Source: Schmidtea polychroa
Taxonomy: Eukaryota
NCBI GenBank assembly: GCA_044892525.1
Contig: CM097885.1
Span: 57,474,001 to 57,538,000, forward strand
Direction of reading: 5' to 3'
DNA length: 64,000 nt
This document shows, piece by piece, positions 44,301-64,000 of the stretch. The position numbers and the translations under genes are program-made. A model generated the notes under the pieces. It ran no database searches and was not told the DNA's origin. It saw only the letters and a list, made by a program, of their open reading frames with translations. How positions within the stretch are numbered: position 1 is the first letter of the stretch; each line of letters opens with the position of its first letter.

Positions 44301-45605
44301 AGACCACTTTATTGATTGATCCATGTTTGAAATTGAGGTGTGATTGGCTTCTTGGTCTTCAACATATACGTTATTGCTTTAGGTCTGTTTTTAGTTTAAA
44401 CCTTTTACCATATAAATAATGTTTGAAATGTTTGGTAAAATAGATTATGGCTAATAATTTTTTCCAAGTGCTAGAATAGTGATACAATAAAAAATATTTG
44501 ATTTTGAGAAATGAAAACAAAATCTATATTCATAAACTAATTAAAAGTCCAAATGAAAAAAGGAGATCAAATATGAATAAAATGAAACCAAATAATTCAA
44601 TATGGTTCCATTTCAAAATGATATTTTAGATGACCCTTTGCATAATAAAAAATATTGGATTCAGAATACATTTATATGGACAACAGAAGATGATATCCAA
44701 AGCATGTAATGGCTGAGGTTTTGGTTGCGTCACGGTACCCAATGTAATAAGATTATAAATCAGAATTTTTATCTTTCTTGAATTTTATAAATCAAAACTT
44801 GAGTGACAGGGATTTTGTTACTTAAATATGCAAAAATATCCATCTTAACTGATCAGATTATTTAAGGTTATAATATGTAAAATTTGACGTTTAAATGATA
44901 AATAAAAAATATCAAATAAAACAAGCAAATATCAGCAAGTCGAAAGAAGATGAAATTAAAAAAAAATTATAATTAATGAAACAATGATTTATGTTCAAAA
45001 GTTGACAGGCTTCCTTAATTTTGCGTTTACGTCCTTTTGTATTTTTTTTAAATTACTACAAAAATACAATTAATAAGAATGTAATTAGTAACCACATCTT
45101 TATTTTCCCAAATCAAATAATTACAAATTATGCCATAAGCGTAAAATAGTCAATTATAACAAAATTATGATAGTGACGAATAATCAATCTAAATAATCTT
45201 ATAATACCAATAATATTTCACGTAAATATTTTTACAATAAAATATAATATTGATAAATAATTAAAAAGTTATATTAATTACAACTTTAATTAGTTAAAAT
45301 TAATATATCTATCAACCAGTTTTATAAAAATATCATATATTGCATATGATTTAATTTGATGATGTTATTTAGCAACGGTTCTCAAACTTTTTCCACGAAG
45401 ACCCCTTTAATTTCTTTTCAAAGTTTTGGCGACCTACTCAAAACAAAAACAAAATTTACCGGTTTCAGCAATTTTAGCGAAAATAAATTTGGTAAAATAT
45501 GGTTTCTCCGATAAACTAATTAATTAGAAAAATAGGATGCGATGGTGAATTCTAAGCTCATACAGTAATATACAGTAATGATACAATTTCCACTGCTCAG
45601 ATATA

Positions 45606-45868
45606 AATAGTGAGGAATCTATGCACCCCAGCACCCCCACCCTAAAAAAAAACAGCGCTATTGACCCATATTTTCCACATTTATATGCTTTTTTACCCCA
45701 TATTCTTCACTTTTTTTAACTTTTAAACTTTGTCCCCTATTGCCATTAACCCTTAATTTCTTCCCTTAAAAGTAAAAAAGTTCGGAATAGATGTATTTAT
45801 AGATTAGTAATTCCGAGAAAAGGTAACGGGGTGCATAGATTCCTCACTACTTGGTCTTAAGGATTTAA
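45606..45868 (+). repeat. Left TIR (263 bp) with an internal inverted copy of the terminal 24 bp at 45828-45851
   Basis: Reverse complement of 60265-60527. By eye the only difference is base 2 (AATAGT vs AGTAGT). Confidence 0.97.
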
Positions 45869-46529
45869 TGTTATAAGGATTTAATGTTATAAGAATATCA
45901 GATTACCTAATTCATAATGATCTAGGTCGCCTGATCACCTTAAGGTTTTGAAAGTTTTAAAAATAAAAAATTTTATGAAAATAGTAAAACTGCTCTGAGG
46001 GGACAGTGGAATTTTTTTTTTTTTTTTTTTTTTTTTTCACTGTCCCCTCAACAGTTTTTTTTGATCCGGATCATTTTTTTTTTTATTTATCAACCTCTTT
46101 CGTTTATCAAATCTCTTCCAATATACAAGCTGGCCAGACTCATACATCAGAATCAATCCGATAATAGCAGCACGCCTTATTATTCGCTTCTCGCTCACGA
46201 AGTCGATTTCAACGGCGTTTTAAGCGTGCTGCTCGAAAGTACAAATGAATTCGAAAGCGAATCCGAAAGAGGTCCGAAAACAACCAAGAAATAAATGTGC
46301 ACATTATAGAATCGATCCGGGGGTGTTCGAAAGACAGGTGGCGATAATTACCGGTTCGCCACCATCACCCGTTTCAATATTTTTTTTTTCATATTTATGT
46401 TTAAAAAATAACTAAAATAATTAAAAAAATAAAATAAAATAAAATAAATAAAATAAAATATACAAGTACTTTATAAATATAAGATACCCACACTATTATT
46501 TTTAAATTTTTAATATTATTTTTATGTTG

Positions 46530-46611
46530 AAAAAAAACTAACCACAGTTAGGATTTGAACCGCTATCTATTTGAACCACTGTGCCAGTCTAGCCCACTGC
46601 GCCATCAAGGT
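46530..46611 (-). ncRNA. tRNA-like Pol III unit 1
   Basis: A-box TGGCGCAGTGG, B-box GGTTCAAATCC, tRNA-length spacing and a downstream T-run. The cloverleaf is incomplete. Confidence 0.55.
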
Positions 46612-46769
46612 TTGAATTTTTGTCATTTTTTAGACTATAAATAATCGATTCAAGTTAAAACGTTTTTGATCTTAAATTTCCAAGAGTTGCCGTTGACCAA
46701 TCACCTTTAAAATTTGTACAAGTACTAAATCGAGTATGCTGATCAATATTTTGTTTAAAAAAAAATTTG

Positions 46770-46850
46770 AAAAAAAATGACCGAAATGGGATTTGAACCC
46801 ATTGGTATTGGCAATGCAGTCGAGTGCTATTACCACTAAGCTATACTCAA
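46770..46850 (-). ncRNA. tRNA-like Pol III unit 2 (tRNA-Cys-like 5' half)
   Basis: GTATAGCTTAGTGGTAATAGCACTCGACTGCA resembles eukaryotic tRNA-Cys(GCA). Perfect T-arm ATGGG-TTCAAAT-CCCAT and a T8 terminator. Acceptor and anticodon stems do not pair. Confidence 0.65.
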
Positions 46851-47003
46851 TATGAAATAAGTTGTTAATGTGTGACTATTTATTGATGAAATTAATAATT
46901 AATTATTCATTTTCTCGACAACTACCACTCAGATCCATCTGAAAATTTAAATATATACTAAAATCAGTACGCTGAATCAGATTCCGTTGAAAAAAAAATA
47001 TCG

Positions 47004-47085
47004 AAAAAAATTGACCAAAATCGAAAATTGAACCCGGTACTCCCGGTGATAAAATTGAAGCCTATTCCCACTCCGCTATAATGGC
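47004..47085 (-). ncRNA. tRNA-like Pol III unit 3
   Basis: A-box TAGCGGAGTGG, degenerate B-box GGTTCAATTTT, 5 of 7 acceptor pairs (GCCATTA/TTTTGGT) and a T7 run. Confidence 0.5.
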
Positions 47086-47141
47086 TTACATAATATATTT
47101 AATTAATCCTATTGTGTGTGTGTAAATTTTAATATATAAAA

Positions 47142-48434
47142 ATGAATAATATAAATCTTAAAATTCAAGAAAAAAATAAATTAAATCTTGATTATAATAA
47201 AGAATTTACTCATGAAATCAAGAAAAACGATGTACTTAAAATCTCCCCAACTTCAGGATCTATTGCAAACTTAAATCGTAGGGGTGATATAGTTTTTCAA
47301 TCTCTTCAAACATCAAACCCTATAGATATTTGTAATGCCAAATTATATTATAAAATCGAATTAGAAATTGAAGCAAACAAAGATATAACCCTAGAAAATA
47401 ATTTCTTTCCAAATTTATTCTCCAACATGAGATTAAAACTAGGATCATCAGAAATTGAAACTGTTTTACATCCGGGAGTATATTCTACAATGTTAAATTT
47501 TATTTTGACTGGTTGTGATTATAAAAACGAATATGGTGAATTAACAGGTTGGATTCCTGATGTTAATAAAGGGGATTTAGATAAAGATGGTTTAGATGTA
47601 AACCATGGTTACCATAAAAGAGCTGAACTTTATAAATCTAAAAAATTTGAAGGTTATTTTGAATTAAAACACTTGTTTGGATTCCTTCAAAACTATAATC
47701 GTATACTTCATAATGTTTTTATAGAATTCATCTGTAATAGAGTAGAAGGTGATAAAAGATTGTTCTATGGAGCTGTAGATACAAAAGCTAAATTAAAATT
47801 ATCAACACTTGAATTACATATACCTGAATGGACATTAAACCCACATTCTGAAATTAAACTCCTTGAAAGATTAAATTCCAACAAGTCTATAAATGTAAAT
47901 TATTTAAATAGAATCTGTAGTGAATTTAGTATGACAGAGGGTTCAACATATTCTATAAAGGTAGCAAATTTAGCATACCGACCAAGATATATCTTGATTG
48001 GATTCAAAGAAGTAGATTCATCTTTCCAAAAAAATAACAACTTGTTTATTCAAAAGATTGGAGTTGATAATTTAAAAACAATCCAAATTCAATTAAATAG
48101 TTCTTATTATCCAATAAATAGAATGGAATTTAATATTGAAAATAATGAAAACATATTCCCATATCTAAATTATATTGAAACATGTTATGATTTCAAAGTT
48201 GAACCGCAATTAAGTTTAGAAGATTTCAAAAATTTATATTCTATATTTTGTATAAATGTTTCAGACCAAGATGATCGCCTAGCCATAAATAATGTTGATG
48301 TTACACTCCATGTAACAAAGGATTCTAATTTTAAAGCTAAAGTATATACATTAATATTAGAAGAAAAGAAAATAGAAATGAAATTATATGGTGGAAAGAT
48401 TTCAATAATCGAAAATGTTAGGGGAGATTCTTGA
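47142..48434 (+). CDS. Polinton major capsid protein (double jelly-roll, PY/hexon-like)
   Basis: ITLENNFFPNLFS.MRLKLG..EIE..LHPG.YSTM and PRYILIGF match remembered Polinton MCP motifs. 430 aa and beta-rich. Confidence 0.85.
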   Translation: MNNINLKIQEKNKLNLDYNKEFTHEIKKNDVLKISPTSGSIANLNRRGDIVFQSLQTSNPIDICNAKLYYKIELEIEANKDITLENNFFPNLFSNMRLKLGSSEIETVLHPGVYSTMLNFILTGCDYKNEYGELTGWIPDVNKGDLDKDGLDVNHGYHKRAELYKSKKFEGYFELKHLFGFLQNYNRILHNVFIEFICNRVEGDKRLFYGAVDTKAKLKLSTLELHIPEWTLNPHSEIKLLERLNSNKSINVNYLNRICSEFSMTEGSTYSIKVANLAYRPRYILIGFKEVDSSFQKNNNLFIQKIGVDNLKTIQIQLNSSYYPINRMEFNIENNENIFPYLNYIETCYDFKVEPQLSLEDFKNLYSIFCINVSDQDDRLAINNVDVTLHVTKDSNFKAKVYTLILEEKKIEMKLYGGKISIIENVRGDS

Positions 48435-48463
48435 TATAATCCCTGATATTTTAACATTTTAAA

Positions 48464-49846
48464 ATGTCTTTAAATAAATATTGGAGATGTGAAACTTGTA
48501 ATTGTCAAGTTACAAGACATCATAAAGCAAGCCATCTTAAAACTAAAAAACATACAGTAGGTGACCTAATTCCACGAGCTGGAGGCGATTTGCAATCTTC
48601 AAAAACAACATCTTCAATATTAAAACCTTTTACTACAGAAAAATATCCAGGTGAAAGACATTTATTTAAACACAACTATACTGGACCAGGAACACGTCTA
48701 GATATTAGATTAGATGAAAATAATAATCCCAAACAAGGAGAAGAACCAATAAATAGAATTGATCAAGCAGCTCTAAAACATGATATTGCTTACAATTCAG
48801 AAGATCTTAGAGATAGACATGTTGCAGATGTTAATTTAATACATGATTTAAATAGTATCCAAAATCCATCAACCCAAGAAAAGATTCAAAGAGCTCTAGT
48901 TAAATTAGCAATGAAAGGTAAGATTTTCATAGGTGCTAGTTTACCAAGGATGGCAAAAGATGTTGCTAATAAAAAGATTATTGAACAAGCAGATGCTGAA
49001 AGATCCCTCGAGAATATATCCAAGACTAATTTATTAACCCCAACAGAATCACAAATAAAATATGCCAACGAATTACACCATGAATTTAGAAAAAATAAAA
49101 AATATTTAAAAGTTCAAGTACATGAAAAAGATCAAACATGGTCTGCAGATTTAGTCTTTATGCCCAAATCATCAGACCCTGAAAAATATAAAATAATTTT
49201 AACTGTAATAGATTTATATACAAGATTTGCTTTTGCAAGATGTTTAGAAAATAAAACAGGATATTCTATTACAGAAGCATTTGAAAATATATTTGAAGAA
49301 AATCAAAGAATCCCAAAATATTTATGGTGTGATAAAGGAACAGAATTTTATAACAAAGTTTTTACAAAGTTTTTAAATGAAAATGATATTAAATTATATT
49401 CAACAGAAAACGAAGGAAAAGCAGTCGTAGTTGAAAGATTAAATAGAACATTAAAAAATAAAATGTGGAAATATTTTACTGCTATTGGAAAACAAAAATG
49501 GAACAATGAATTGTTACAAAAGATTGTAAATGAATATAATAATGATGTACATAGTTCTATAAAATTAACACCTTTAAATGCTTCCATGAAGCCTGAAACC
49601 ATTAAAGTGGTAAATATTGAAAATGATGTTATTGAAAAACCAAAGTTTAAAATTGGTGACCGAGTAAGAATATTTAAATATAAAAATAAATTTGAAAAAG
49701 GATTCACAGCAAAATGGACAAATGAAATTTTTATTATAAATAAAATACATTATACAACTCCAATAACATATAGCATCTTTGATTTAAATAATGAAAAAAT
49801 ATTAGGTAGATTTTATAATAATGAACTACAGAAAACAGATTTTTAA
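48464..49846 (+). CDS. Zinc finger-PLA2-retroviral-type integrase fusion
   Basis: CETC..H..H finger; YTGPG and DQAALKHDIAY (parvovirus-type PLA2); WSADL, IDLYTR, WCDKGTEF, VVERLNRTLK (rve D,D,E); KFKIGDRVRI and YNNELQK. No terminal chromodomain. Confidence 0.92.
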   Translation: MSLNKYWRCETCNCQVTRHHKASHLKTKKHTVGDLIPRAGGDLQSSKTTSSILKPFTTEKYPGERHLFKHNYTGPGTRLDIRLDENNNPKQGEEPINRIDQAALKHDIAYNSEDLRDRHVADVNLIHDLNSIQNPSTQEKIQRALVKLAMKGKIFIGASLPRMAKDVANKKIIEQADAERSLENISKTNLLTPTESQIKYANELHHEFRKNKKYLKVQVHEKDQTWSADLVFMPKSSDPEKYKIILTVIDLYTRFAFARCLENKTGYSITEAFENIFEENQRIPKYLWCDKGTEFYNKVFTKFLNENDIKLYSTENEGKAVVVERLNRTLKNKMWKYFTAIGKQKWNNELLQKIVNEYNNDVHSSIKLTPLNASMKPETIKVVNIENDVIEKPKFKIGDRVRIFKYKNKFEKGFTAKWTNEIFIINKIHYTTPITYSIFDLNNEKILGRFYNNELQKTDF

Positions 49847-49857
49847 GTCGACAAGCC

Positions 49858-50664
49858 CTAAAACAAACTTTTCCATATTTCAGCTTCTTCTCTATCCAAA
49901 TAAATATAATTATATTTTTCTTTCCAATGATTATCAACAAACATATCAAACATATTCTTATCAGGTTCAACATTTGAAAATAAATCATTATAAATCATAT
50001 TCTTATCACGGCGATCTAATTTAAAAAATATAAAACAATTGGAATTATTTCTTATTGAATTTTTATCTAAAGCATAATATGTTTGAGATATATAAATAAC
50101 ATTACAATTATTATGTCGACCTCGTGTAAAGTAACTCTTTTGAATCTCTTGATTTTTCATATTAACAACATCATCAAATATAACTAGATTCTTTTTATCT
50201 TTAGGAAGTAAATCACAATGTAAAACATCTTCAGGTTTATTAGAGAATAAAACTTGAATTGCCTCCTGCCCTTCTTCACAAATATAATCATTTTTATTAC
50301 TAATATCTGATTCTAAAATCTTTTCCTTATACCAATCAACCATATCACAAGGTTGAAAAACTTCTTCAGGACACCTATGTTGATTTTTAAAAATATCAAT
50401 TATTGCTTTTTTAGTTAATTTATTTTCAAATCCACATTTCAAAAGTTGTAATTCTGGTTGATTTATGGTTGTAGAATAAAAGATTAAATTATTATAATCC
50501 AAAAAACCATCTTCTAATAACATTCTCATAAGAAGAACATTCTTTCCACATCCAGAAGATCCAATAATTAAGCATCTAAAATTATCAGGAAATACTTTAT
50601 TATTAAATTTACTCTTATGTCTATTTAAAATTGGTTTCCAAATTATTGGACTTCGTACATCCAT
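49858..50664 (-). CDS. A32/FtsK-like packaging ATPase (likely start at ATG 50664)
   Basis: Walker A IIGSSGCGKN (N at the usual S/T position), Walker B LVIFDD, RGRHNN..IYISQ. Confidence 0.9.
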   Translation of the reverse strand: MDVRSPIIWKPILNRHKSKFNNKVFPDNFRCLIIGSSGCGKNVLLMRMLLEDGFLDYNNLIFYSTTINQPELQLLKCGFENKLTKKAIIDIFKNQHRCPEEVFQPCDMVDWYKEKILESDISNKNDYICEEGQEAIQVLFSNKPEDVLHCDLLPKDKKNLVIFDDVVNMKNQEIQKSYFTRGRHNNCNVIYISQTYYALDKNSIRNNSNCFIFFKLDRRDKNMIYNDLFSNVEPDKNMFDMFVDNHWKEKYNYIYLDREEAEIWKSLF

Positions 50665-50679
50665 TTTGTTTATTATAAA

Positions 50680-51210
50680 ATGACAACTGAAGAATCTTTG
50701 CAAGAATTAATAAATTCAAATAAAAATAAATCAGTAGTAATTGATGGTAAAAAATATTTTATTGGAAAACATGTAAAAGAACAAGTTAGAGCGAAGATCC
50801 ACGAAGCTAAAGAAGGTGGCATTCTTCCATTAGCTGCTTTAATACCTGCAATCATTGCTGGTTTATCAGGTGCTGCTGGAATAGCTGGAGGAATTGCAAC
50901 TACAGTTCAAAAAGCTAAAGAATCTCAAAAGACAGACCTAGAAAAAGAAAAACTACAAACTGAAATCGATTCAATGAAGAAGGTAGGGCAAGCTAAAGGG
51001 GGAGTGTCCGTTGGAAAAGGTCTCTATCTTAATCCATATCAAGGGACTCCGTCTCAGGGGAGTCGGCAAAAGTCTCAGGGCAAAGGTCTCTATCTTGATC
51101 CTTATAAAGGTAGAGGTTTAAATGATTTTTTAAAAAATCAAATTTCTACATCTGAATCTTTATCTTCAAAAGATAAAGAAGATTTAAAAAAAATATGTAA
51201 ATCTTTGTAA
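50680..51210 (+). CDS. Putative virion core protein with adenovirus pX/mu-like hydrophobic segment
   Basis: GGILPLAALIPAIIAGLSGAAGIA resembles adenovirus pX GGILPLLIPLIAAAIGAVPGIA. Repeated GKGLYL.PY motifs. Confidence 0.6.
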   Translation: MTTEESLQELINSNKNKSVVIDGKKYFIGKHVKEQVRAKIHEAKEGGILPLAALIPAIIAGLSGAAGIAGGIATTVQKAKESQKTDLEKEKLQTEIDSMKKVGQAKGGVSVGKGLYLNPYQGTPSQGSRQKSQGKGLYLDPYKGRGLNDFLKNQISTSESLSSKDKEDLKKICKSL

Positions 51211-51293
51211 AACTAAAAATGGTAAAGGATTATACTTGAAGCCCTTTCCAACGGATCCTTTACCAAAATGATACCATTTTTGATACCATTAAA

Positions 51294-52175
51294 ATGGTAT
51301 ATGAAGAAAGATTAGCACTTTTAAAAAAATTACAATCAGAACAAGATAAATATAATAAAAAAGATACAACTCAACATGCTGAATCTATAATATTAAATGA
51401 GGTAATAACACAACAACAGGGGCCAACAATTAAAGCTATAAAAGAGTTGGAAGATTTCAATGAGCAAGCAAAATTTAAAGAGTTAGAAGATAAAAAACAA
51501 AAAATAAAAGAACTAGAGTGGCAGGATAAAGAAAAAGAATCCAGTGAAAACCATCCTGAAAGAAATCAAAGAAAACGCAGAAGAATTTCTAATGTGGAAG
51601 AAGAAGAAATGTTTTTAAAAACAAAAGCTCTTAAAGTTGATCCTAAAATTAGAGATGATTTACCTCCTTCAATTAGACCCACATTTAATACTAATACTAA
51701 AGGATATCAAATAATAACAATTAATAAACAAAACTTTACTTTATATTCAAATTCAGAAAATAAATCACGTATTCATTCACAAAATGTTTATAATAATGAA
51801 TATTTAGACTTTGAATTTACAGATGATTTTTATAGATTACTTTGTGGATATTCTTCAGATGATGTTGAAGAAATTAAAAAATATTTAAATTTAATAAGAT
51901 TAATAAGAGCTAGTTCTAAAGCAAAATATATTCAAGATTTAAAGAATTATTTAAATAAAAATGAAAAGGGTTATGTTGTTACAGAGGGAGAGGGATTAAT
52001 TAGTGAAGGTGGTAAACCAAATCCCATCAATCTTTTTATTGAATTAAGAAAACTATTAGCTGCAAGGAAAGCAGGACATAATAATTTAGATTCTGATATT
52101 TTAAAGATTTCTAAAGATTTGTTAAAACAAGGAATAATTTCAAAAGATAAATTTAATAAGTATACGAAGTTATAA
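51294..52175 (+). CDS. Polinton conserved hypothetical protein
   Basis: 293-aa open ORF. C-terminal NPINLFIELRKLLAARKAGHNN..I..I..L...GII resembles a helix motif I recall from Polinton ORFs. Confidence 0.6.
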   Translation: MVYEERLALLKKLQSEQDKYNKKDTTQHAESIILNEVITQQQGPTIKAIKELEDFNEQAKFKELEDKKQKIKELEWQDKEKESSENHPERNQRKRRRISNVEEEEMFLKTKALKVDPKIRDDLPPSIRPTFNTNTKGYQIITINKQNFTLYSNSENKSRIHSQNVYNNEYLDFEFTDDFYRLLCGYSSDDVEEIKKYLNLIRLIRASSKAKYIQDLKNYLNKNEKGYVVTEGEGLISEGGKPNPINLFIELRKLLAARKAGHNNLDSDILKISKDLLKQGIISKDKFNKYTKL

Positions 52176-52197
52176 ATACGAAGTTTTAAAATACAAA

Positions 52198-52650
52198 ATG
52201 ACTCCTTCAATATTAGATTTTTTAAAAACATTTGGAATAAATGCAAAAACAAATTTTGATTTAAAAGATTATGCAAATTATTTAAATTTAAAAATTAAAA
52301 TATTAATGAATGATGAATTATCAAGTCTGGAGAGTCCCCTGAATATAATAATCAATTATCAAAATTCAAATGAAAAAGGATCTCATTGGGTTTGTATATA
52401 TAAGAAATCTATCTACTTTGATTCTTTTGGGATTAAACCTACTAAAGAAGTTGAAGATTATCTCTTGAGGGGTTCTCCGATTGATTCCCCAAATGGTTAT
52501 ACTTTTAACTCTTTACAAGTTCAACCTTTGAATACTAAAATATGTGGTATTTTAAGTTTATATGTTTTGTATAGATTGAATATGGGGCATACGCAGGATT
52601 TTGAATCTATAATTCAAGAAATTTATAATGATCTAGAATCTCTACTATAA
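52198..52650 (+). CDS. Adenain-like cysteine protease
   Basis: GSHWVC (His), YFDSFG (Asp), QVQ..TKICG (Gln/Cys). Confidence 0.92.
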   Translation: MTPSILDFLKTFGINAKTNFDLKDYANYLNLKIKILMNDELSSLESPLNIIINYQNSNEKGSHWVCIYKKSIYFDSFGIKPTKEVEDYLLRGSPIDSPNGYTFNSLQVQPLNTKICGILSLYVLYRLNMGHTQDFESIIQEIYNDLESLL

Positions 52651-52698
52651 GGATTTTTACTATAAGGATTTTTACTATATGAATTTACTACTAAAGAA

Positions 52699-53463
52699 AT
52701 GGAGCTTCACAACCCTCCGGAAGATAATTTAAAAAAAATGGTAAACATAATGTCAGATAAATATTCAAGAACTTTATCTATAAATTCAAAAGAATCAGAG
52801 TTTACTATAAACTTTCAAGATTCAATTAAATTAGATCAAAATTTAAATTATGAATTGGGGCTATTATGGTTTTGTGCTTATAATACTATTTTTAATATAA
52901 CTAAAGATAATAATAAATTTACTATTCAAACTCGTGATGGGCATAAACCAGAAATTATAACAATAGAACCTGGGGCATATGAGATAAAAGATTTAAATGA
53001 TATACTTTCTAAAAAAACAAATGAAGGTATTAAAATTAAAATGGATATACCAACTTCAAAATGTGTAATGACTTTGAAGAATATAAAAATTAGTTTTTTA
53101 GATAATTGTTTCTTTCACACAGTTTTAGGATTTAAACCTATGGATATAACAATAAAAGAAGATAAAATAATAACATCAGAACATATTATAAAAATAATAA
53201 ATACAAACACAATAAATATTCATTGCGATTGTATAACAGGTTTTTATAATAATGGTAAACAAACAAATGTTTTATATTCCTTTCCCTCAAACACAGTTCC
53301 TATGGGATATAAAATAGTTGAAAGAATGAATCCTCCAAATTATTTACCTTTATGTAGAAAATATATAATGGATATTAATTTTAAAATTCTTAATCAAGAA
53401 GGAGAATTGATTGATTTTAATGGAGAAGAGATTTCAATGTATTTACATTTGAAACAGGTTTGA
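52699..53463 (+). CDS. Minor capsid protein (penton, PX)
   Basis: YNTIFNIT..NNKF, IEPGAYEIKDLN, INIHCDCI.G.Y.NG....VLYSF, GYKIVE.P.YLP, NQEGELIDFNGEEI...LHL. Confidence 0.88.
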   Translation: MELHNPPEDNLKKMVNIMSDKYSRTLSINSKESEFTINFQDSIKLDQNLNYELGLLWFCAYNTIFNITKDNNKFTIQTRDGHKPEIITIEPGAYEIKDLNDILSKKTNEGIKIKMDIPTSKCVMTLKNIKISFLDNCFFHTVLGFKPMDITIKEDKIITSEHIIKIINTNTINIHCDCITGFYNNGKQTNVLYSFPSNTVPMGYKIVERMNPPNYLPLCRKYIMDINFKILNQEGELIDFNGEEISMYLHLKQV

Positions 53464-53487
53464 AGATTCATTTTAAATTATTAATAA

Positions 53488-54498
53488 ATGAGTTCTTATA
53501 TTCCTTGTAATAGAGGTGGTGGAACAATAAAAACAGGGTTTAATACAGAAGAAATATTAACTTTAACAGAAAATAAATATATTAATGAAAGAGGTGATTC
53601 AATGAAGGGTGATTTAAATTTAAATGGACACAAGATAAAAGAATTATCTTTTCCAACTGATGAAGCTGATGCAATTAATAAAAAATATGTTGATGGTGTT
53701 AAAAATTATACTGATTTAACAACAACAAGAATTGAAAGTTCATTAACAACAAAAATGGATTCAATGGAATCAAAGCTTAATAATATCGAACAACGATTTA
53801 ATGATAAATTTGACAAGTTACAAAGTCTGTTAACTGAACAAGTTGTAAAGTTAAATACTGCTATATTAAATTCTAAAGATAAACAAATTATGAATACTAA
53901 ATTTAATACAATATATAAAATAATAAATGAGATGATTACATCATTTAATAAAAGAATTTCAAATTTAGAGTCTCATGGAACACACATTAACACCACACAT
54001 AGTATTAGAAAAAGAGCTGCTGAATTAGAACAGAATAAAACATTATTACCCCATACATATAAACATTTTATAGAACCAAGTTTAATAACAACAAACAGTA
54101 AAGAATGGGGTGTTTTTATGGTTGTAAAAATTATTGATCCTTATTTCTTTTTGTTTGATGATGATAATGAAAGAATGAAATGGTTTGTGAAATGTGATTA
54201 TAATAGTAAGCTTGAAAAGGGTGATGTTATAATGACTAGTTATGATTTACCACACGGAGATTGGTATGTTAATACTCATTCACATGGACTACATAAAGTT
54301 AAAAGTAAGAATATTCATTTTTCTAGTTCACTTGTACAATATATAGATTTAATATTTTATGAAAAAAAGGTTGATGTTGATGAAGTTCGTAAAGCATTGA
54401 GAGAATTGTATAAAGATATCCTCTCAACAAGAGTTTCTTTTGATATCCGAGTATTGGTGCCAGATGGTGCTCAGAAGAATAAAGTCTTATTTTTTTAA
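53488..54498 (+). CDS. Putative fibre/spike protein
   Basis: GDSMKGDLNLNGHKIKELSFPTDEADAINKKYVD (tail-fibre/adhesin-type repeat), then a long heptad coiled coil and an unknown C-terminal domain. Confidence 0.5.
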   Translation: MSSYIPCNRGGGTIKTGFNTEEILTLTENKYINERGDSMKGDLNLNGHKIKELSFPTDEADAINKKYVDGVKNYTDLTTTRIESSLTTKMDSMESKLNNIEQRFNDKFDKLQSLLTEQVVKLNTAILNSKDKQIMNTKFNTIYKIINEMITSFNKRISNLESHGTHINTTHSIRKRAAELEQNKTLLPHTYKHFIEPSLITTNSKEWGVFMVVKIIDPYFFLFDDDNERMKWFVKCDYNSKLEKGDVIMTSYDLPHGDWYVNTHSHGLHKVKSKNIHFSSSLVQYIDLIFYEKKVDVDEVRKALRELYKDILSTRVSFDIRVLVPDGAQKNKVLFF

Positions 54499-54506
54499 TT
54501 ATTAAA

Positions 54507-55118
54507 ATGGAAGAAGTAAGAGAAGAAAAAATTTACCCAGAATTGAGATCATCAGGATATTATTCCGAAGGTCACAAAGGTTCCAAGGCCTCGGCTCCCA
54601 CAGAACTTGAAATTATGAGAGTAAAAGAATTTAAATCAGAAACCTTACATTTAAAAGATTTATTAAAGCATTATAAAAAAATTAAAAATAGATGGAATAA
54701 AGGGAATACAGTTTTAAAAGTTATAGGTTATTCTTTAGGATTTGCATCTGCAATATTAACAGTTATTTTACCCATAACTTTACCAGTTGTTACTCTTGCA
54801 CCTGTAATACTTGGAAGTATTTCTGTGGCTGATGGTTTCTTAACTGAAATAGTTTCATTATCTTATACTTCTAAAAAGAAAAGTTTATATAGAGAAGTTT
54901 GTTTATCAATAGAATTAGGAATCTCTAAATTATTTTTATTTCAATTAAAAGCTTTGGAAGATGGAATCCTGACAGACGAAGAAATAATGAAATCAAATCA
55001 AATAATACAAGATATAAAGAATGAGGTTATAAGATTAAAAAGGGAGGGCATGGTGGCTAATGTTATAAGTAATAAAAAAACATCTCGAGAAAAATGGTTA
55101 AAGAATTCTTACTTATAA
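54507..55118 (+). CDS. Polinton/adintovirus membrane-associated protein (possibly the gasdermin-X-type ORF)
   Basis: N-terminal IYPEL, hydrophobic hairpin VIGYSLGFASAILTVILPITLPVVTLAPVILGSI, and KALEDGILTDEE. The family label is from memory only. Confidence 0.5.
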   Translation: MEEVREEKIYPELRSSGYYSEGHKGSKASAPTELEIMRVKEFKSETLHLKDLLKHYKKIKNRWNKGNTVLKVIGYSLGFASAILTVILPITLPVVTLAPVILGSISVADGFLTEIVSLSYTSKKKSLYREVCLSIELGISKLFLFQLKALEDGILTDEEIMKSNQIIQDIKNEVIRLKREGMVANVISNKKTSREKWLKNSYL

Positions 55119-55196
55119 AATGGGTGTATTTTTAAAAAAGTAGATCAGGTTGCTATAGTTGCTTAAATTAATTGTCGACATTTTATTATTAAAAAA

Positions 55197-55751
55197 TTAA
55201 ATATCGTTGAAAGCCAACCTATGAATCATTAATTTATGATCTTTAAATTCTTTATCACTTAGACCTTTTATATATTCAGGATCAGTATTAAAATATTTAA
55301 GTTCTAAACATATAGGATTAAAAACTTGAGAATATAAAGGTTTCTCGATTTCTCTCTGGGGATAAATAATTTCAACATTATAAATATCAAGATCAGTAAT
55401 CTTTGTATCATATAACTTATTCAACTTTTCTAGATTTTTTATTATAGGGATTAAATTATTTCCAATAGGTAGAGTTGTCTTTAAATCACTTAGTATGAAT
55501 CTCTTATCATCATAATTTGATAATGATACTTTTTGAGATTCTATCAAGTGAATATCATGGTTTTCACTTTTAAGTTGATGTATTTCATCAATTTTATCTT
55601 TATGATTTGGGTTTAATGTATCTATATAATCTTGATGAGAAAGATTCTTTGCAACCACTCTCTGTATTCCTTTACATCTGTTATCCTTTAAATTAGTAAT
55701 ATTTTTTATAATTTCAAAAATGTTATTTTCTTGATTTTTAGTTTCCATCAT
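55197..55751 (-). CDS. Stand-alone paralog of the pPolB C-terminal ~150 aa
   Basis: Ungapped alignment to the pPolB C-terminus at exactly 600-bp offset, ~95/152 identical by hand. Has its own AAAATG start like the other element ORFs. Confidence 0.85.
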   Translation of the reverse strand: MMETKNQENNIFEIIKNITNLKDNRCKGIQRVVAKNLSHQDYIDTLNPNHKDKIDEIHQLKSENHDIHLIESQKVSLSNYDDKRFILSDLKTTLPIGNNLIPIIKNLEKLNKLYDTKITDLDIYNVEIIYPQREIEKPLYSQVFNPICLELKYFNTDPEYIKGLSDKEFKDHKLMIHRLAFNDI

Positions 55752-55775
55752 TTTATAGTGTTAAAATTCTAATTC

Positions 55776-58700
55776 TTAGACCAGTCGTAATTGATTTATA
55801 ATTATTTCTGCAGTAATGCTTTTTAACATTAATTTATGTGATTTAAAGTCTTCTGGTGTTAGTCCTTGGATATATTCAGGATCAGTATTAAAATATTTAA
55901 GTTCTATAGGTTTTATATTTTGAACTTGATTATATAAAGGTTTAGGAATTAATATTTCAGGATATTGGATTTCTACTTTAGCAAGTTGAAGGTCTGTAAT
56001 CTCTAGGTTATAAATTTCATTTATTTTATCAAGATTTTTTATTATAGGGATTAAATCATTTCCAATAGGTAATGTTGTCTTCAAGTCAGAAAGTATAAAT
56101 CTTTTATCATCATAATTTGTTATAGCAATCTTGTTACACTCTTCAAGATATATATTATGTTTCTCTGATTTAAGATGATGGGTTTTAGCAATTTTATTTT
56201 TATAATTTATATTTAATGAATCTTTATACTCTTGATGTGTGAAGGTTTTTGACACTGATTTTTGAATTCCTTTACTTTTATTTTCTTTATAGCTTTTCAG
56301 GTTTTCAGGGAATGAAGGATATTCAAATGTTCGATCTACTTCAACAGATCCTTCTATTATAAATTTTATTGTATGCTCTTTCATAATTGGTTTGTCTTTC
56401 ATTTCAAGAGAATATTGTTTAGGTCTAATAAACACTCCTCCAGTTATTGGAGTATTTGGTTTTTCATCTTTAAAAGTAAACAACTCTCCAGAATTGTTTA
56501 TTAATTTATTTAAGGTTGGATCTTCACGTATTTCTTTTTTTAAATCTTTGCTATATCCTTTTAAAAACATACTATCAGTGTCCATTGCATGCATGGATAT
56601 TCGATCTCCAAAATGTGGTACTAGAACATCATAGTAGGCTTCATACATTTGAAGCTTTGAAAGTTCTAAAATTGAAAACCCTATAAAGATTGGTTTATTA
56701 TAAGTTTTTACAGAGTTTTTAATCTCTATGGCTATAAGGTTACTAGAGAATATCTCGGCATTTTTAAATGTGGGCTTTCCAATTATCCGGTTGTACCTAT
56801 TAAGGTCTTTGGATGTATTGGTCAAAAGCTCTACACGTGTGTACTTGTCTATATTCTCCATGGTCTTTCCAAAGACCGCATTGTTCAGGAGTTTGTAAAT
56901 CATATCAAGAAATGCATTTCCAGCTCTCTTTGCTGCATTTCTTTTCAAAATATTTCCCTCTATGAATTTTTTCATAAAAGGGGCTTGTCGAAATTTAATA
57001 ATGGAATGTACTTTTTTTAAAACCATTCCATGGGAGAGATAAAACTGAAGGAGTCTATAATGACAAAGGTAATCAGTTTTATCGGTCTGATCGCATAAAA
57101 GTTTTATACAGGGCGATCTATCCTGAGCCATCTGCCAGTCTGAAAGTTCTTCAGTCGAGATCTTTCTTCTTACTGGAGCAAATGGAAAGAATCTTGTCCT
57201 GGATTTTATTTCATTGGGATATTCAAGATCGCATTCTATGACATATCCATATTGTGAATTCTTTGGTGTTTTTAGAATTTCTTGTATTAATTCCTCAGTG
57301 GGCTCTTCCCAGGTGAACTTGCCAATTGGAAGGTATTGAGTCATTACTCCTGCATATAAAGCTGTTGCATCTATATACATTATTTCAGAAGGATTAGAAA
57401 GACCTTCCAGTATTTCCTCACGATCTTCTGGGTTTGTTATTTCTACATATAGAGCATCAGTATCTTTGAAAAATTTAGGATAAAGAGTTGTAAAATTATT
57501 AGCATTTATTTCTCTATTCCCTTGTACTGAAGAAATACCTCCTCTAATATTATGTTTATATACATTAAACATATCAAGGTCAACTAATAATTCAATGGTT
57601 TTATTTCTTTCTGCTATGTCTTCATCGGTCCATATGCTATATAATAATATATCCCAAGCTAGAGAGGGAGCGGTTATATAATTATAAGGTTTTAATTCAA
57701 AAGCTTTTGAAAATGTCTCGAAGCAATCAGCTAAGATATAAACATCTAAGGAAAGATACATGTCAGTATATTCTCCAAGGTTTCTACAGTTGAAAAGATT
57801 CCACATTTTAAGTGCACGGGAATATTCCTGATCAGAAATCCCTGATTGTGTTAAAACAGAAAAGAAATCTTCTTGAGCTGGGAGTAATTCATTATATTTT
57901 TCAAAGGAGTCTATATAATCATATGGATAGATTCCTTTTGCTAGACAGGTATTATATTCCTCTAATGGAATATTGTTTTTTAATAACACATGTTCTTTTG
58001 TATATTTAAAATCCTCAGGGTTCATAGTTTTTGCAATGCCATCCAAAGACATCCCTAAGAAATTTAAGGAGTCCAAAAACTTAAAGCATCCATATTGAAT
58101 GCTTTTATATTTTTCTTTTGTAAGTCCAATAACCTTGAAAGAGTTTTTAGCATTTGCAGCTAGATGTTTAATGAACAGGTGAATATCATAGCCAAAAAGA
58201 TTGTGAAATATAAATGGTATGTGTGTTGGTTTTTTACAATTGAGATTACAATTTTTATGGGCCGCTCCTCTGTAATTATTTTCTATTTTAAAATGATCAT
58301 GGTCAGGAACCTTTAGTTCACTAGTTGACTCCTCATCCTCAAACTCTTGTTTGCACATCCAGCAGTGTGTTGCATTTTTATATTCTTCCTCTTGTTCTTC
58401 TGAAAAATTCATAGGAAAGTTGGATTTTAATATTATATATAATTCATGTTCTAGATTATTTAAAGTTTCAACAAAATGGTCTAGAGTCTCTTTGTCAGAA
58501 GTTCCCCTAAATGAATATTCTCTAGATTCTACAAGTTCTGGATAATTACTTTTGAAAAACATTTTATAAGCAGAGGGTAATTGTTTTGTTAGTTTTACAG
58601 TATTAGTTTTTGTTCGTCTTAGTTTTACATTTATAGCTTCAAAATCACAATAAACCACTCCCAATGCTTCTAATAGATTGGAATAGTTTTTAAACCTCAT

Positions 58701-60161
58701 ATTAGCATTTTTCTTGTGTGGCATTTTTATTAAAGCAGGTTGATTCTTACAACAGAGTCTCTCATGTTTAATAGCAGCAAGTTTTGAAGTTGAATGATAT
58801 AAACATCTTTTACAACATATGCCTCCACGAATGAGTGTGTTTCCTTTCATAAAACTTTGAAAATTCTTTATTAAGATATAATGAAGTTTTTTATCTAACA
58901 TAGTGCCTCCGGACGCAGTGCTTTCTGCTTCTGGTTCTAATGAAATGCCTTCTTCTGCTTCCATAACCTTCGGGTGAATACTTTGAACCTCTTCACCATA
59001 TTCTTCTCCATCAAACTCTTCGTCTGCTTTACCTTCTTCTAATATTAAAAGATCTACTTCTCTCTTTTCATCTGAGATTTCCATATTAGAAATGTAAATA
59101 GGAATAATTTGTTTATAATTTTTATTTTTTCTAGTTTTTGTAATTTTGGTTGGAATGAATTGATAAATATTAATTTTAAGATTATTTAATTTTTCAAATG
59201 CTGGAACATCTTCAATTTTCATTGGGTGGGAAAAATCTTTTGGATATATTAATTCAGATTCATATTCTTCATATTTTTGAACTCTCTGTGGGTTAGTTGC
59301 TTGAGGATGTAAGTGTGCAAGTATTGACCATTGAAAACATTTATTATCTTTATTCTGTACATTTATAACATGGTTGGAGGTGAATGGTGTATGAATAAAA
59401 GATTTAGGATTTGGTGGTGCACCTCTCCAGTATTCAATCTCTATGTTTTGAAAAGAGTGGAATCTTAAATTAGATTCTCCTAGTTCTTGTTCCACCTGTT
59501 CTTGTTTTTCTTCCAATTCTTTAGCTATATCATTAACAAGTTTATTTCCTGCTTTTGTAGAAAATAAATATTTATATGAGGTTTCAATTTTTACATCTAG
59601 AGGCATTGCGATCGAATCATCTCCTCTCCAGTATTTTGCATTTCCTGTAAATTTAACTTTTATAACATTAAATCTTGATCTACCAAATTTTTTTATAGCA
59701 TCATCCATTGATGATATTATTTTTTTTTTATTTTCTCTTATATATTGCATGATTGATCTGGGTCCTCGTTTTACTTCTGCAATTACATCGGTGTGATTGA
59801 AGTCATCCCAATTAAACTCTAGTTTTTCAGCTTTTTCAGTCATTGAGTTTGAATCAGAATCTTTTGCTTCAAGACCACAATCTTCTATGTGTCTTAAGTA
59901 AAAAGATTTTATCCTCATCTTTTTTCCACATGCTGAACATTCAAATATTTCTCTGTTTTTAGGAACTCCAATACAATTTTTAAAATGTTTCTTATAACCT
60001 GAAAATAAATATCTATCCTTACATTTAGTACAGATTTTGGAATTAGTGTCATCTAGTGTGTTAGCTTTTATTAAATGGTCTTTTGATTTTTTATGAGATG
60101 TTAAAGCAGTTTTATTTTTAAAATATTTTTCACAAATTTCACAATTAAAAATAGCTTCCAT
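55776..60161 (-). CDS. Protein-primed family B DNA polymerase (1461 aa) with N-terminal zinc fingers and an endonuclease VII-like insert
   Basis: NVQNKDNKCFQWS, ExoI YCDFEA, CWMC..DHDH..YRGAAH..CN, ExoII FHNLFGYD, KGIYPYDY, ExoIII Y..LDV..LAD, motif A YIDATALY, motif B KLLNNAVFGK, motif C MDTDS, KGI and YDDKR. Confidence 0.97.
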   Translation of the reverse strand: MEAIFNCEICEKYFKNKTALTSHKKSKDHLIKANTLDDTNSKICTKCKDRYLFSGYKKHFKNCIGVPKNREIFECSACGKKMRIKSFYLRHIEDCGLEAKDSDSNSMTEKAEKLEFNWDDFNHTDVIAEVKRGPRSIMQYIRENKKKIISSMDDAIKKFGRSRFNVIKVKFTGNAKYWRGDDSIAMPLDVKIETSYKYLFSTKAGNKLVNDIAKELEEKQEQVEQELGESNLRFHSFQNIEIEYWRGAPPNPKSFIHTPFTSNHVINVQNKDNKCFQWSILAHLHPQATNPQRVQKYEEYESELIYPKDFSHPMKIEDVPAFEKLNNLKINIYQFIPTKITKTRKNKNYKQIIPIYISNMEISDEKREVDLLILEEGKADEEFDGEEYGEEVQSIHPKVMEAEEGISLEPEAESTASGGTMLDKKLHYILIKNFQSFMKGNTLIRGGICCKRCLYHSTSKLAAIKHERLCCKNQPALIKMPHKKNANMRFKNYSNLLEALGVVYCDFEAINVKLRRTKTNTVKLTKQLPSAYKMFFKSNYPELVESREYSFRGTSDKETLDHFVETLNNLEHELYIILKSNFPMNFSEEQEEEYKNATHCWMCKQEFEDEESTSELKVPDHDHFKIENNYRGAAHKNCNLNCKKPTHIPFIFHNLFGYDIHLFIKHLAANAKNSFKVIGLTKEKYKSIQYGCFKFLDSLNFLGMSLDGIAKTMNPEDFKYTKEHVLLKNNIPLEEYNTCLAKGIYPYDYIDSFEKYNELLPAQEDFFSVLTQSGISDQEYSRALKMWNLFNCRNLGEYTDMYLSLDVYILADCFETFSKAFELKPYNYITAPSLAWDILLYSIWTDEDIAERNKTIELLVDLDMFNVYKHNIRGGISSVQGNREINANNFTTLYPKFFKDTDALYVEITNPEDREEILEGLSNPSEIMYIDATALYAGVMTQYLPIGKFTWEEPTEELIQEILKTPKNSQYGYVIECDLEYPNEIKSRTRFFPFAPVRRKISTEELSDWQMAQDRSPCIKLLCDQTDKTDYLCHYRLLQFYLSHGMVLKKVHSIIKFRQAPFMKKFIEGNILKRNAAKRAGNAFLDMIYKLLNNAVFGKTMENIDKYTRVELLTNTSKDLNRYNRIIGKPTFKNAEIFSSNLIAIEIKNSVKTYNKPIFIGFSILELSKLQMYEAYYDVLVPHFGDRISMHAMDTDSMFLKGYSKDLKKEIREDPTLNKLINNSGELFTFKDEKPNTPITGGVFIRPKQYSLEMKDKPIMKEHTIKFIIEGSVEVDRTFEYPSFPENLKSYKENKSKGIQKSVSKTFTHQEYKDSLNINYKNKIAKTHHLKSEKHNIYLEECNKIAITNYDDKRFILSDLKTTLPIGNDLIPIIKNLDKINEIYNLEITDLQLAKVEIQYPEILIPKPLYNQVQNIKPIELKYFNTDPEYIQGLTPEDFKSHKLMLKSITAEIIINQLRLV

Positions 60162-60264
60162 TTTTAAAAGAATTTTTTGGTTGGATACGATGTTTTGGTT
60201 TTGATATTAATTTTTATTAATTTTTAAATCCTTATAACGTTAAATCCTTAAATCCTTTAAATCC

Positions 60265-60527
60265 TTAAATCCTTAAGACCAAGTAGTGAGGAATCTATGC
60301 ACCCCGTTACCTTTTCTCGGAATTACTAATCTATAAATACATCTATTCCGAACTTTTTTACTTTTAAGGGAAGAAATTAAGGGTTAATGGCAATAGGGGA
60401 CAAAGTTTAAAAGTTAAAAAAAGTGAAGAATATGGGGTAAAAAAGCATATAAATGTGGAAAATATGGGTCAATAGCGCTGTTTTTTTTTAGGGTGGGGGT
60501 GCTGGGGTGCATAGATTCCTCACTACT
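60265..60527 (-). repeat. Right TIR (263 bp) with an internal inverted copy of the terminus at 60282-60305
   Basis: Ends ..GATTCCTCACTACT followed by TSD GATATA. Confidence 0.97.
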
Positions 60528-60865
60528 GATATATTTTCAATAGTTAGGAGGAATGTTTTTGTGAAATGATATTAAATTATTTTCAGTTTACCATTGCATA
60601 CAGAATGTAAATAAATGATGCTGAATATAAATTTCGCTAAGAATATTTTGGCCGAAATTAGACAAATTCCAAACTTACATGCCAGTTATACTATACGATT
60701 CCCAATACATATTTCCCTTAACCAAGTAAAAGAGATGACTGAGATTGTTTCTTTTTCACAAGGTCATAAAAGCGTTGAAGTATGAAATCTTTTATATAAA
60801 TTTATTTATGATTTCATCTGTAAAAAGTAATGCCAGTGTTAAGTAATATGTTATTGTTATTGTTA

Positions 60866-61635: not shown

Positions 61636-64000
61636 CTATTTGAGGCAATCGCTATAACGCTTTTTGTATTCTGGTGTGATTGTTGTGTTATTGTCGAAAA
61701 TTTTTGTTAAGTATTTTTCGCTGAATCTGATGTGTTTCTGGTTTGTCTGTATTTCTGTTCGTTCTTGAACTTTGTACTTTGGGTGGTTGTTTTGAGGGTT
61801 TAGGTTATGGTGATTGTTAAGAGTTGATGTTTTGTTTTCGTGATATGGTTTTAATCTGCGTATGTTTATTTTGATTTGTTTATTGTCTTTTAAAATTGTG
61901 CCAACGTTTTTATACATATTTAACAGTTTGTATGGGCCTTCGTACTTTGTTTCAAATCCGCTAGTGAAGGGTTTCTTTACTAAAACCATGTCTATTATTA
62001 GTTCTGTTTGGTTTTGGGTTTTATTATTATTTTTGTTTTTTAGGATACTTTTTAGTATGGGTATTTGTGATTCTTTAGCGGTTGTTTTTATCTTGTTTTC
62101 GTTTTCGTCCTTTAAGTTTGGTAGGTTTGCATTGTGTCCAAAAACTGATTGGCTAGGGCTTTTGTTGTTTAGGCTTGAAGGGTTGTTTCGTAATCCTATT
62201 AGTATTTCTGGTAATTTTTCTAACCAGTTGTTGTTATTATTTGTTTTTGTTCGTATTGCTTGTTTTAATGATCGGTGTAATCTCTCAACTTTTCCGTTTG
62301 ATTGTGGATTGTATGCTGTTGTTCTGGTTTTGTTGATGTTATATTTGTTGCAAAGTCCTTTGAAGATGTCGGATTCAAATTGCCTACCCTGATCGCTGAT
62401 TATTGTCTTTGGGCAGCCATACCGGGCGAACCAGTTTAATTCTAATTTACTGCATATTTTTGGTGCTGATATTTCCTTTATGGGAATGGCTTCGAACCAA
62501 TTTGTTTTTCGGTCTATTATAGTTAATAAGTACTTGTGTTTATTATTTGGAGGTAGAGGGCCGACTATGTCGATATGTATCGTTTCGAAAGGTTCAGAAC
62601 TTGGAAATTGTACAATTGTTGTTTTGAATTGTTTTGTTGTTATTTTATTCTTTTGACACTGTGGGCAATTTTTTACGAACGTTTTTACGTCCCTTCTCAT
62701 GAAAGGCCAAACAACTTTGGTATGCAGAAGTTCGTATGTGGCTTTGTTTCCCGGATGGTAGATGTTGTGATATTTTTGGAGGTATTGATCGCGCAGTTCT
62801 GCTGGTACTACAATCCTTTTGTTATTGTCATTTGAAGTGTCGTACCATATGCCGTCTATTTCTTCCAGGTGGAGTGAATTCATCCTTGGAGTTTCGATTG
62901 TTGTTTCCTTTTGTTTAGTTTTTAACTTTTCTAACTCTATGATGGGTGTTATGTTAAGTGCATTTATGTCAGTTTCTATTCTTGATAATGCATCTGCACT
63001 TATGTTAGCTGAACCTGCTATGTATTTTATTTTGCAATTAAATTGTGAAATATAGTTTAATTGTCTTATTTGTCTCGGTGAAGGATTTTTCATGTTCAAT
63101 GCGTTTATTAAGGGTTTATGGTCGGTATACACTTCGAAATCTTTTCCTTCCAATAGGTATTGGAAATGTCTGATTGTATCATGTAACGCTAATAACTCCC
63201 TGTCAAAAGTGGAGTATCTCATTTGGTGAGTTTTGAGTTTCCTTGAGAAGAAAGCTATTGGTATTTTTTCGTTATTTTCTTCTTGGAATATCGTTCCGCC
63301 CATTGCTACTCCCGAACAATCTGTGTTGACTATGTAGGGTAATTCTTGGTTGGGATAGTTTAGGATGCTTGCATTTTTCAGATTTTCTTTTGCCTGTTCG
63401 AACGCTGTTATTAGTTTTTCGTTCCCATTTATTTTGATGTTTCTCTTTATTTTGTTCAGTTCATTGAGAGGGGCTTACATTTCACTACATCTTGGTATGT
63501 ATTTGTGATAGAAATTGATCATGCCAAGGAAACGTCTTAGCTCTTTTGTAGTTTTGGGTAGGGGGTAATTTTTGATTGCTTTGATTTTGTCGTCTAAAGG
63601 TCTTGTTCCATTTTCGTTTAACATGTGTCCCAGGAATTTTATTTCTGTTTTCAAAAATTCACATTTTTTTATGTTAATTTTTAGTTCATGTTTGCTTAAT
63701 ATTTCGAACACATTTTTAATATTTTGTATATGTTCTGTTTTGTTTGCTGATGCTATTAGGATGTCTTCAAAGTATACGACTGTGTTCTGTTGATTTCGTA
63801 ATATTTGGTCCATGAAACGTTGGAAAGTGGCTGCAGCATTTTTTAATCCAAAAGGCATTTTGTTATACCCGAAAAGTCCTATGGGTGTGATAATTGCTGT
63901 TTTCTTTATGTCTTCAGTTCTGACAGGAATTTGATGATAGGCTTTTTCTAAATCTATTTTGCTGAAAATTTTGGGTTTGTTAAATCTGTTGATGATATCG
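61636..64000 (-). pseudogene. Gypsy pol (RT-RNase H-IN); RNase H/IN frame open but RT inactivated
   Basis: MPFGLKNAAATFQR. The YxDD motif reads YFED. One in-frame TAA at 63475-63477. Also YSTFDRELLA, VYTDHKPL, HIDIVGPLP, SDQGRQF, YNPQSNGKVERLHR and YEGPY. Confidence 0.92.

Follow-up and report, generated by a model that had tools for sequence, protein, structure and literature searches.

A Polinton in a 64,000-nucleotide stretch of Schmidtea polychroa DNA (contig CM097885.1, positions 57,474,001 to 57,538,000; hereafter the window, meaning this whole stretch) carries near one end three tRNA-like units, U1, U2 and U3, that retain the promoter boxes of RNA polymerase III (Pol III) genes, and beside them a candidate structured non-coding RNA of ~385 nt, here called SR. 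Comparison of U3 between Polinton copies suggests that its promoter boxes have been kept and the fold of its RNA has not, which fits a docking site for TFIIIC and Pol III. We propose, giving the idea about an even chance, that U1-U3 are tRNA-derived Pol III-type promoter modules acting as DNA docking sites for TFIIIC/Pol III rather than as folded RNAs, which would keep the end of the element open and help to express SR, and that U1 and U2 were likely captured from the host ribosomal DNA (rDNA).

Promoter boxes of the tRNA-like units

The initial annotation described three minus-strand units ~235-240 bp apart, each with an A box at tRNA position 8, a GGTTCAA B box and an oligo-T terminator, and our coordinates confirmed it (Table 1). 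A search pattern of A box, GGTTCRA and T5 matched exactly U1-U3 in the window and had 0 matches in each of 300 block-shuffled windows, and the spacings measured 235 bp and 239 bp. All three units have the layout of type 2 Pol III genes (A box, B box at tRNA spacing, oligo-T). They lie, as also described, inside the Polinton bounded by its target-site duplication and divergent from the capsid gene, with 57 bp between the start of U1 and the capsid ATG (47142). U3 contains a second B box at 46577-46571, and this doubled box is tripled in some Polinton copies. The suggestion that the boxes were retained while the tRNA form was lost agrees with ARAGORN, which reported 0 tRNA genes over the whole window, and with the Rfam tRNA model (RF00005), which scored U2 alone, at 26.7 bits (below the cut-off of 29), and did not match U1 or U3. 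U2 has retained the T arm; its acceptor and anticodon stems are gone. It had been likened to tRNA-Cys(GCA), and this was the closest of 9 host tRNA types (Z 12.6), so that, judged by this likeness, U2 is derived from host tRNA-Cys(GCA). U1 is a paralogue of U2 (Z 9.9), and U3 resembles U2 (Z 4.3) and a further unit, U0, found in the rDNA spacer (Z 4.7). For the tRNA source of U1, U3 and U0, Cys was best or near-best of the 9 types, with Z values of 4-5 only.

We compared capsid-picked elements and divided their alleles into shared alleles (at least 3 copies), which represent replicating lineages, and rare alleles, which represent decay after insertion. The U3 comparison covered 100 units, with the proximal B box (2/9 sites) placed in neither group. 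Shared variants were found at 1/20 sites of the A box and distal B box versus 23/44 sites of the body (p = 2e-4), and the sole varying box site was an A/G position permitted by the box consensus. Rare alleles were equally frequent in boxes and body (0.30 vs 0.32 per site). For reference, shared variants occurred in the capsid gene at 18/44 four-fold sites and at 4/132 second codon positions. No common fold was found among the 12 commonest U3 variants. As conservation was limited to the boxes and no U3 fold was seen, these comparisons suggest that the promoter of U3 was kept and its RNA was not.

A candidate structured RNA beside the units

SR starts 160 bp beyond the T run of U3. Its fold was more stable than that of shuffled sequences on the minus strand (z -4.9) versus the plus strand (z -1.6), and reached z -9.7 over 401 nt including a 3' hairpin ending in T4. 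Shared variants were present at 31/286 sites, and in four helices they kept the base pair in 10/11 cases versus 11/37 for rare alleles (p = 4e-4), a difference weakened by the non-independence of shared alleles, by one pair being counted twice and by the helices having been derived from the same sequences. Two pairs varied on both sides, one being A-U 22, G-C 15 and G-U 10 times (49 copies), and the other A-U 55 and G-C 17 times (75 copies). SR thus has the strand-specific stable fold and pair-keeping variation of a structured non-coding RNA, among close relatives only and with few both-side changes. Several deletions in SR (in loci L037, L044, L116 and L128) removed whole predicted helices or helix tips cleanly.

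A 226-nt contig of sequencing run X6 joins the window at 46370, with 4 differences in 211 nt, and begins with 15 non-genomic letters that match the 3' end of the template-switch oligo listed in Table 2 of PMC9338959. Since these oligo-matching letters are joined at 46370, they mark the 5' end of a minus-strand RNA at 46370/46369, in a single contig of depth 3.8, the label of run X6 being that of a different organism (organism B). This end is the first base of the predicted 5' helix, 10 nt before the A-box-like motif; the 3' end of SR is a prediction. Contigs of run X1 cover U1-U3 and SR, and those of run X3 cover SR and not the units, the status of both runs as RNA being a guess; X11 contigs had nothing over the region. 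In X1 the depth figure rises far higher over SR, a value given no weight here because the depth of contigs is no measure for ranking parts. An origin of SR from 7SL RNA was rejected (score 22.5 against host 7SL vs a null of 22.0 +/- 2.9), as was an encoded peptide, whose frames were broken between copies as judged by eye, and no Rfam family reached its cut-off over 45600-47300.

Polinton copies and the ribosomal DNA spacer

Searches of the host genome (781 Mb) with the capsid gave ~3,200 candidates, and the array matched at 99-100% identity in all 40 scored of 2,226 candidates. Exact patterns were counted 2,947 times for U3, 1,928 times for U1 and 2,656 times for SR, and we estimate ~1,344 for U2 (2,342 pattern matches minus 998 host tRNA-Cys genes). 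A dispersed host short interspersed element (SINE), named beforehand as the finding that would have overturned the array, was rejected: the first U3 matches had Polinton neighbours in 86/86 stretches (a few of which overlap), SR matches picked mainly for a missing exact U3 had Polinton context in 16/16, and no dispersed solo copies were found, nor did a poly(A) tail or a duplication flank the units. U1 matches lacking an exact U2 neighbour were in Polintons in 13/14 cases and in rDNA in 1/14.

We then scored 99 capsid-picked loci, of which 2 duplicates were dropped, leaving 97 copies in a sample that favours divergent ones. U3 was present in 77 (by BLAST), U1-U2 in 28, SR in 80 and nothing in 15. 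The view of the array as Polinton cargo stands in that it is a fixed cargo and not a SINE, but the trio itself is not fixed. A B box lies at most 330 bp upstream of SR in 79/80 SR-bearing copies. In 8 element pairs selected for this feature, inverted repeats of 0.7-1.2 kb bear U3 and its adjoining region at each end of the element, oriented outward, and U3 is often in both terminal repeats of other subfamilies; the right end of the window copy is without any tRNA-like unit. One element (L257) has U2 shifted outside the 3' hairpin, between hairpin and terminal repeat. Capsid homologues numbered 41 in other species. No relatives were found in viral contigs, four metagenome loci, three of which extend no more than 363 bp before the match, contained no A/B-box unit by one pattern, and distant capsid queries of the host genome detected no second Polinton family.

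The single non-Polinton U1 match lay 3 kb upstream of an 18S gene, at the start of host contig C1. Among 20 blindly sampled unplaced stretches 5 were rDNA, and 4 of these 5 were of the major 45S type, 99-100% identical to the C1 copy. In the spacer of this type (G000:C1:12235-13410, locus L307; also L321, L323, L327 and L328), 2.9-3.8 kb upstream of 18S, units follow one another as U0-U1-U2-U2-U2 in steps of 237-244 bp (one stretch is cut off after U1), oriented opposite to rRNA transcription by RNA polymerase I (Pol I). The block shared with the Polinton is ~98% identical (counted from the alignment), with U1 matching at 74/74 nt and U2 at 66/67 nt. The likeness ends at 47130 and 46652, the borders of a presence/absence insertion among Polintons, whose empty sites (n=16) have AAAATT once and whose filled sites have it at both sides; U0 is in the rDNA array, outside the shared block. 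As the likeness ends at the insertion borders and U0 lies beyond them, capture from rDNA is favoured, and we consider it probable that the Polinton took the U1-U2 block from the host rDNA spacer. The near-identical block shows what appears to be a recent exchange of regulatory DNA between a ribosomal spacer and a virus-like transposon. The spacer motif from which the initial annotation had deduced an old duplication is present, as the 3' flank of U1 and of U2; as both units are in the rDNA spacer, their duplication probably took place there and not in the element. The excess of ~580 U1 matches over U2 would be accounted for by an rDNA variant of U2 that does not fit the U2 search pattern.

The units were thus also found outside Polintons, as far as U1 and U2 in the main rDNA spacer are concerned, and U3 itself was not found in the rDNA spacer. 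As 38/100 U3 copies have the bases of U1 after the A box, U3 may be an earlier capture from the same spacer family. A literature search on tRNA-derived or Pol III-type unit arrays in rDNA spacers found nothing comparable, subscription papers and Repbase notes being outside its reach. Host tRNA and 7SL genes themselves stand in long single-type tandem arrays (C1:269.25 Mb, C2:31.93 Mb, C4:76.66 Mb and several unplaced contigs), with a period of 281 bp in one listed array and 998 tRNA-Cys matches.

The element has the Polinton/Maverick hallmark genes, for the double jelly-roll capsid, PLA2-integrase, A32 ATPase and pPolB, as well as terminal inverted repeats and a 6-bp target-site duplication (Table 1). 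The terminal repeat at 45606-45853 is a small inverted repeat itself, with element-like ends at both sides. Outer repeats are wholly different among Polinton subfamilies, and the U3-SR block is kept nonetheless. Many subfamilies (L031, L119 and others) have a small open reading frame (ORF) of ~80-90 codons on the unit strand between the capsid start and U3. The pPolB 5' region (59160-60224) is 69-71% identical across subfamilies (L089, L093, L095 and others) whose capsids are 96-98% identical, a contrast that we take as a sign of module swapping. At its N-terminal start (60075-60149) pPolB has a double-stranded RNA (dsRNA)-binding-type zinc finger (PF12171, E 4.5e-6) that might interact with SR, and a 184-aa ORF directly downstream of pPolB (55197-55751) repeats its C-terminal part. 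The integrase (48464-49846) has a parvovirus-type PLA2 domain. Immediately to the right of the Polinton, at 61636-63858, there is a retrotransposon pol region (RNase H, integrase).

Table 1. Positions in the window of the Polinton, the tRNA-like units, SR and associated features.
Feature	Position	Strand	Details
Polinton	45606-60527		14.9 kb; bounded by 276-bp inverted repeat and 6-bp target-site duplication
Left terminal inverted repeat	45606..45876	+	Target-site duplication GATATA at 45600-45605
SR, candidate structured non-coding RNA	45986..46370	-	~385 nt; A-box-like motif at +10, nested helices, A-rich stretch, 3' hairpin, T4 (45989-45986)
U3	46530..46611	-	Older unit; tRNA position 1 at 46611; A box 46604-46594; B box 46561-46555; T8 46537-46530
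Remnant of small ORF	46612..46651	-	Last 40 bp (3' end); ORF whole in other subfamilies
U1-U2 block	46652..47130	-	~480 bp; common to intergenic spacer of host major 45S rDNA type; AAAATT-flanked insertion in Polintons
U2, tRNA-Cys(GCA)-derived	46770..46850	-	tRNA position 1 at 46850; A box 46843-46833; B box 46799-46793; T8 46777-46770
U1	47004..47085	-	tRNA position 1 at 47085; A box 47078-47068; GGTTCAA 47034-47028; T7 47010-47004
Double jelly-roll major capsid gene	47142..48434	+	PF21738, E 6e-26; divergent from units
Right terminal inverted repeat	60257..60527	-	Target-site duplication GATATA at 60528-60533

Proposed mechanism, alternatives and known systems

In the proposed mechanism, TFIIIC would bind the boxes of the units, and bound TFIIIC would keep the Polinton end open against heterochromatin. 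Barriers formed by tRNA genes (tDNA) depend on intact A and B boxes (PMC7990762), and planarian Polintons are silenced by PIWI (PMC8532177). The doubled B box of U3, likely an earlier capture from the same spacer family, would probably also help to load Pol III for SR, in which an A-box-like motif is present and the B boxes are all degenerate. U1 and U2 may provide additional binding sites, or they may simply be carried along. The RNA that does the work is likely SR, as a dsRNA-like decoy of the kind of adenovirus virus-associated (VA) RNA or Epstein-Barr virus-encoded RNA (EBER), and SR is likelier than U1-U3 to be the VA-like counterpart. A wider scheme, that the Polinton repeatedly takes Pol III promoter modules from the rDNA spacer and drives its own ~385-nt VA/EBER-like RNA, which would blunt small-RNA silencing and aid expansion to thousands of copies, we regard as tentative and rather doubtful.

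Polintons are regarded as kin of the ancestors of adenoviruses. With an RNA of ~385 nt, a mapped start and thousands of young copies, a VA-like counter-defence against silencing by RNA interference or PIWI-interacting RNAs is directly testable, and, if true, would be the first non-coding counter-defence RNA of a Polinton. The analysis has also brought to light that one of two rDNA types contains an array of tRNA-derived units, which points in the direction opposite to Pol I transcription. Within a single genome, lineages whose unit number runs from 0 to 4 form a natural series for comparing chromatin and expression.

Several observations weigh against the docking-site proposal. The AT-rich spacer behind U3 also varied little (5/34 sites), so low variation alone is no proof. 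Higher conservation of the boxes, which the initial annotation had put forward for checking, was borne out for U3; the U1-U2 block was almost without shared variation in 28 copies, spacers included, and too uniform for selection to be judged. Of the 97 copies, 15 are devoid of units and SR, and most of those inspected end in an intact terminus, many directly beside the capsid gene, so the block is dispensable. Most of these 15 are on longer branches (the bootstrap did not settle this), and their share is likely overstated, since the sample leans to divergent copies. The second rDNA type (L318, G000:C240:1-10000), with rRNA genes (18S, 28S) ~90% identical, has a spacer without units, and a test of direction from repeat homology across the rDNA breakpoints gave p = 0.21 and 0.11. 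The boxes, their conservation in U3 and the rDNA match are observations; that TFIIIC binds, that the units act as a barrier, that SR depends on Pol III and that it serves as a decoy we infer.

The best surviving alternative, though an unlikely one, is that the units are passengers, U1-U2 having arrived through an accidental template switch out of abundant rDNA and having then spread through hitch-hiking and recombination, and the U3 boxes being explained by drift or repeat conversion. Unit-less lineages have transposed, unit number ranges from 0 to 4 per copy, and some single copies have lost the A box or the entire U3, all of which would be expected of passengers. However, the boxes and body of U3 have one history, yet lineage-shared changes are missing from the boxes only, and the block predominates in the young, high-copy lineages represented by the exact U3 and SR matches. 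For U1-U2 alone, we consider passenger status about as likely as function.

Ranking next, and also improbable, is the explanation that the 70-80-nt unit transcripts are themselves functional, as tRNA-elbow mimics or as decoys like the viral tRNAs (vtRNAs) of the tRNA-miRNA-encoded RNAs (TMERs) of murine gammaherpesvirus 68 (MHV68). The 6-bp T stem of U2 is perfect, and at three of its pairs both bases differ from those of host tRNA-Cys; U2 also has a new hairpin of 10 bp (z -2.5; 5/200 shuffles as good). Each unit ends in a T7-T8 stop. Moreover, a single vtRNA without miRNAs partly restores MHV68 virulence (PMC4337559). On the other hand, U1 (z 0.22) and U3 folded no better than shuffles, the U3 body was as variable as four-fold sites, and the structure of U2 took shape in the rDNA spacer or earlier, because the Polinton copy of U2 is nearly identical to the spacer one.

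Least probable is that U3 acts by itself as a barrier or TFIIIC site and that SR has no connection with Pol III, being either a short transcript of RNA polymerase II (Pol II) or a single-stranded DNA structure in end replication. A Pol II origin of SR is possible given a TATA-like motif ~27 bp upstream, an AATAAA ahead of the A run, a T4 inside SR at 46280 and no canonical B box, features that likewise weigh against our proposal. Template switching favours capped ends; SR also folds as DNA (z -2.7), is in the terminal repeats of many copies and has had helices cleanly deleted in some. However, the G start, the A-box-like motif and an end made of a hairpin followed by T4 fit Pol III, many of the kept pairs are G-U pairs that exist on one strand alone (7/11 kept when read on plus), and the cDNA end shows that an RNA exists.

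Returning to the docking-site proposal, we compared the units and SR with known systems. Adenovirus VA RNA I and II have, like U1-U3, intragenic A and B boxes and an oligo-U stop, a tRNA origin has been proposed for them, and they belong to a linear dsDNA virus of the PRD1-adenovirus-Polinton lineage (PMC7589676). They are, however, ~160 nt long with terminal stem, central domain and apical stem (PMC7589676), whereas U1-U3 are ~74 nt without such a fold. SR shares with VA RNA the long dsRNA-like stems and a possible decoy role, but is ~385 nt long, has no 5'-3' terminal stem or canonical B box and does not match VA RNA in Rfam. The MHV68 TMERs likewise form, at a genome end, a cluster of tRNA-like Pol III units that are not charged, and a cis role of their promoter was also raised by the authors, but there vtRNA and miRNA hairpins form one transcript (PMC4337559); here each unit has its own T7-T8 stop, and the folded RNA follows 160 bp later with its own 5' end. 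The description of the units as VA-RNA/TMER-like was therefore not upheld, since they have neither layout and the folded, apparently transcribed RNA is further out.

Host-derived tRNA sequences are also carried by polinton-like viruses (PLVs), virophages and MELD viruses (PMC12220804, PMC8502044), with 558 tRNA calls in PLV/virophage genomes (PMC12220804); the available text of PMC8502044 has one tRNA mention, and no mention of VA RNA or Pol III was found in it. Those tRNAs scored as intact, whereas U1-U3 are not called by ARAGORN and do not reach the Rfam cut-off, and two of the three match the rDNA spacer and no tRNA gene array. tRNA-derived SINEs have a similar A/B-box head, and SR has an A-rich stretch, but the units lack solo copies, a poly(A) tail and a flanking duplication. 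For animal Polintons, no report of a Pol III-type RNA or a structured non-coding RNA came up in our literature search, which did not extend to subscription papers or Repbase notes. The closest likeness is to tDNA/TFIIIC barriers, in which, as proposed for U3, function comes from the A and B boxes and not from the RNA, and which lie at domain edges (PMC7990762). The known ones are host loci of yeasts and mammals (PMC7990762), whereas the units are cargo at the ends of a mobile element with a putative barrier role. Among the roles first considered (decoy, small-RNA precursor, barrier), the TFIIIC/barrier idea fits best. The array is a real observation and a variant of viral Pol III cassettes, and by this analogy its units would be most like tDNA sites in the way they work.
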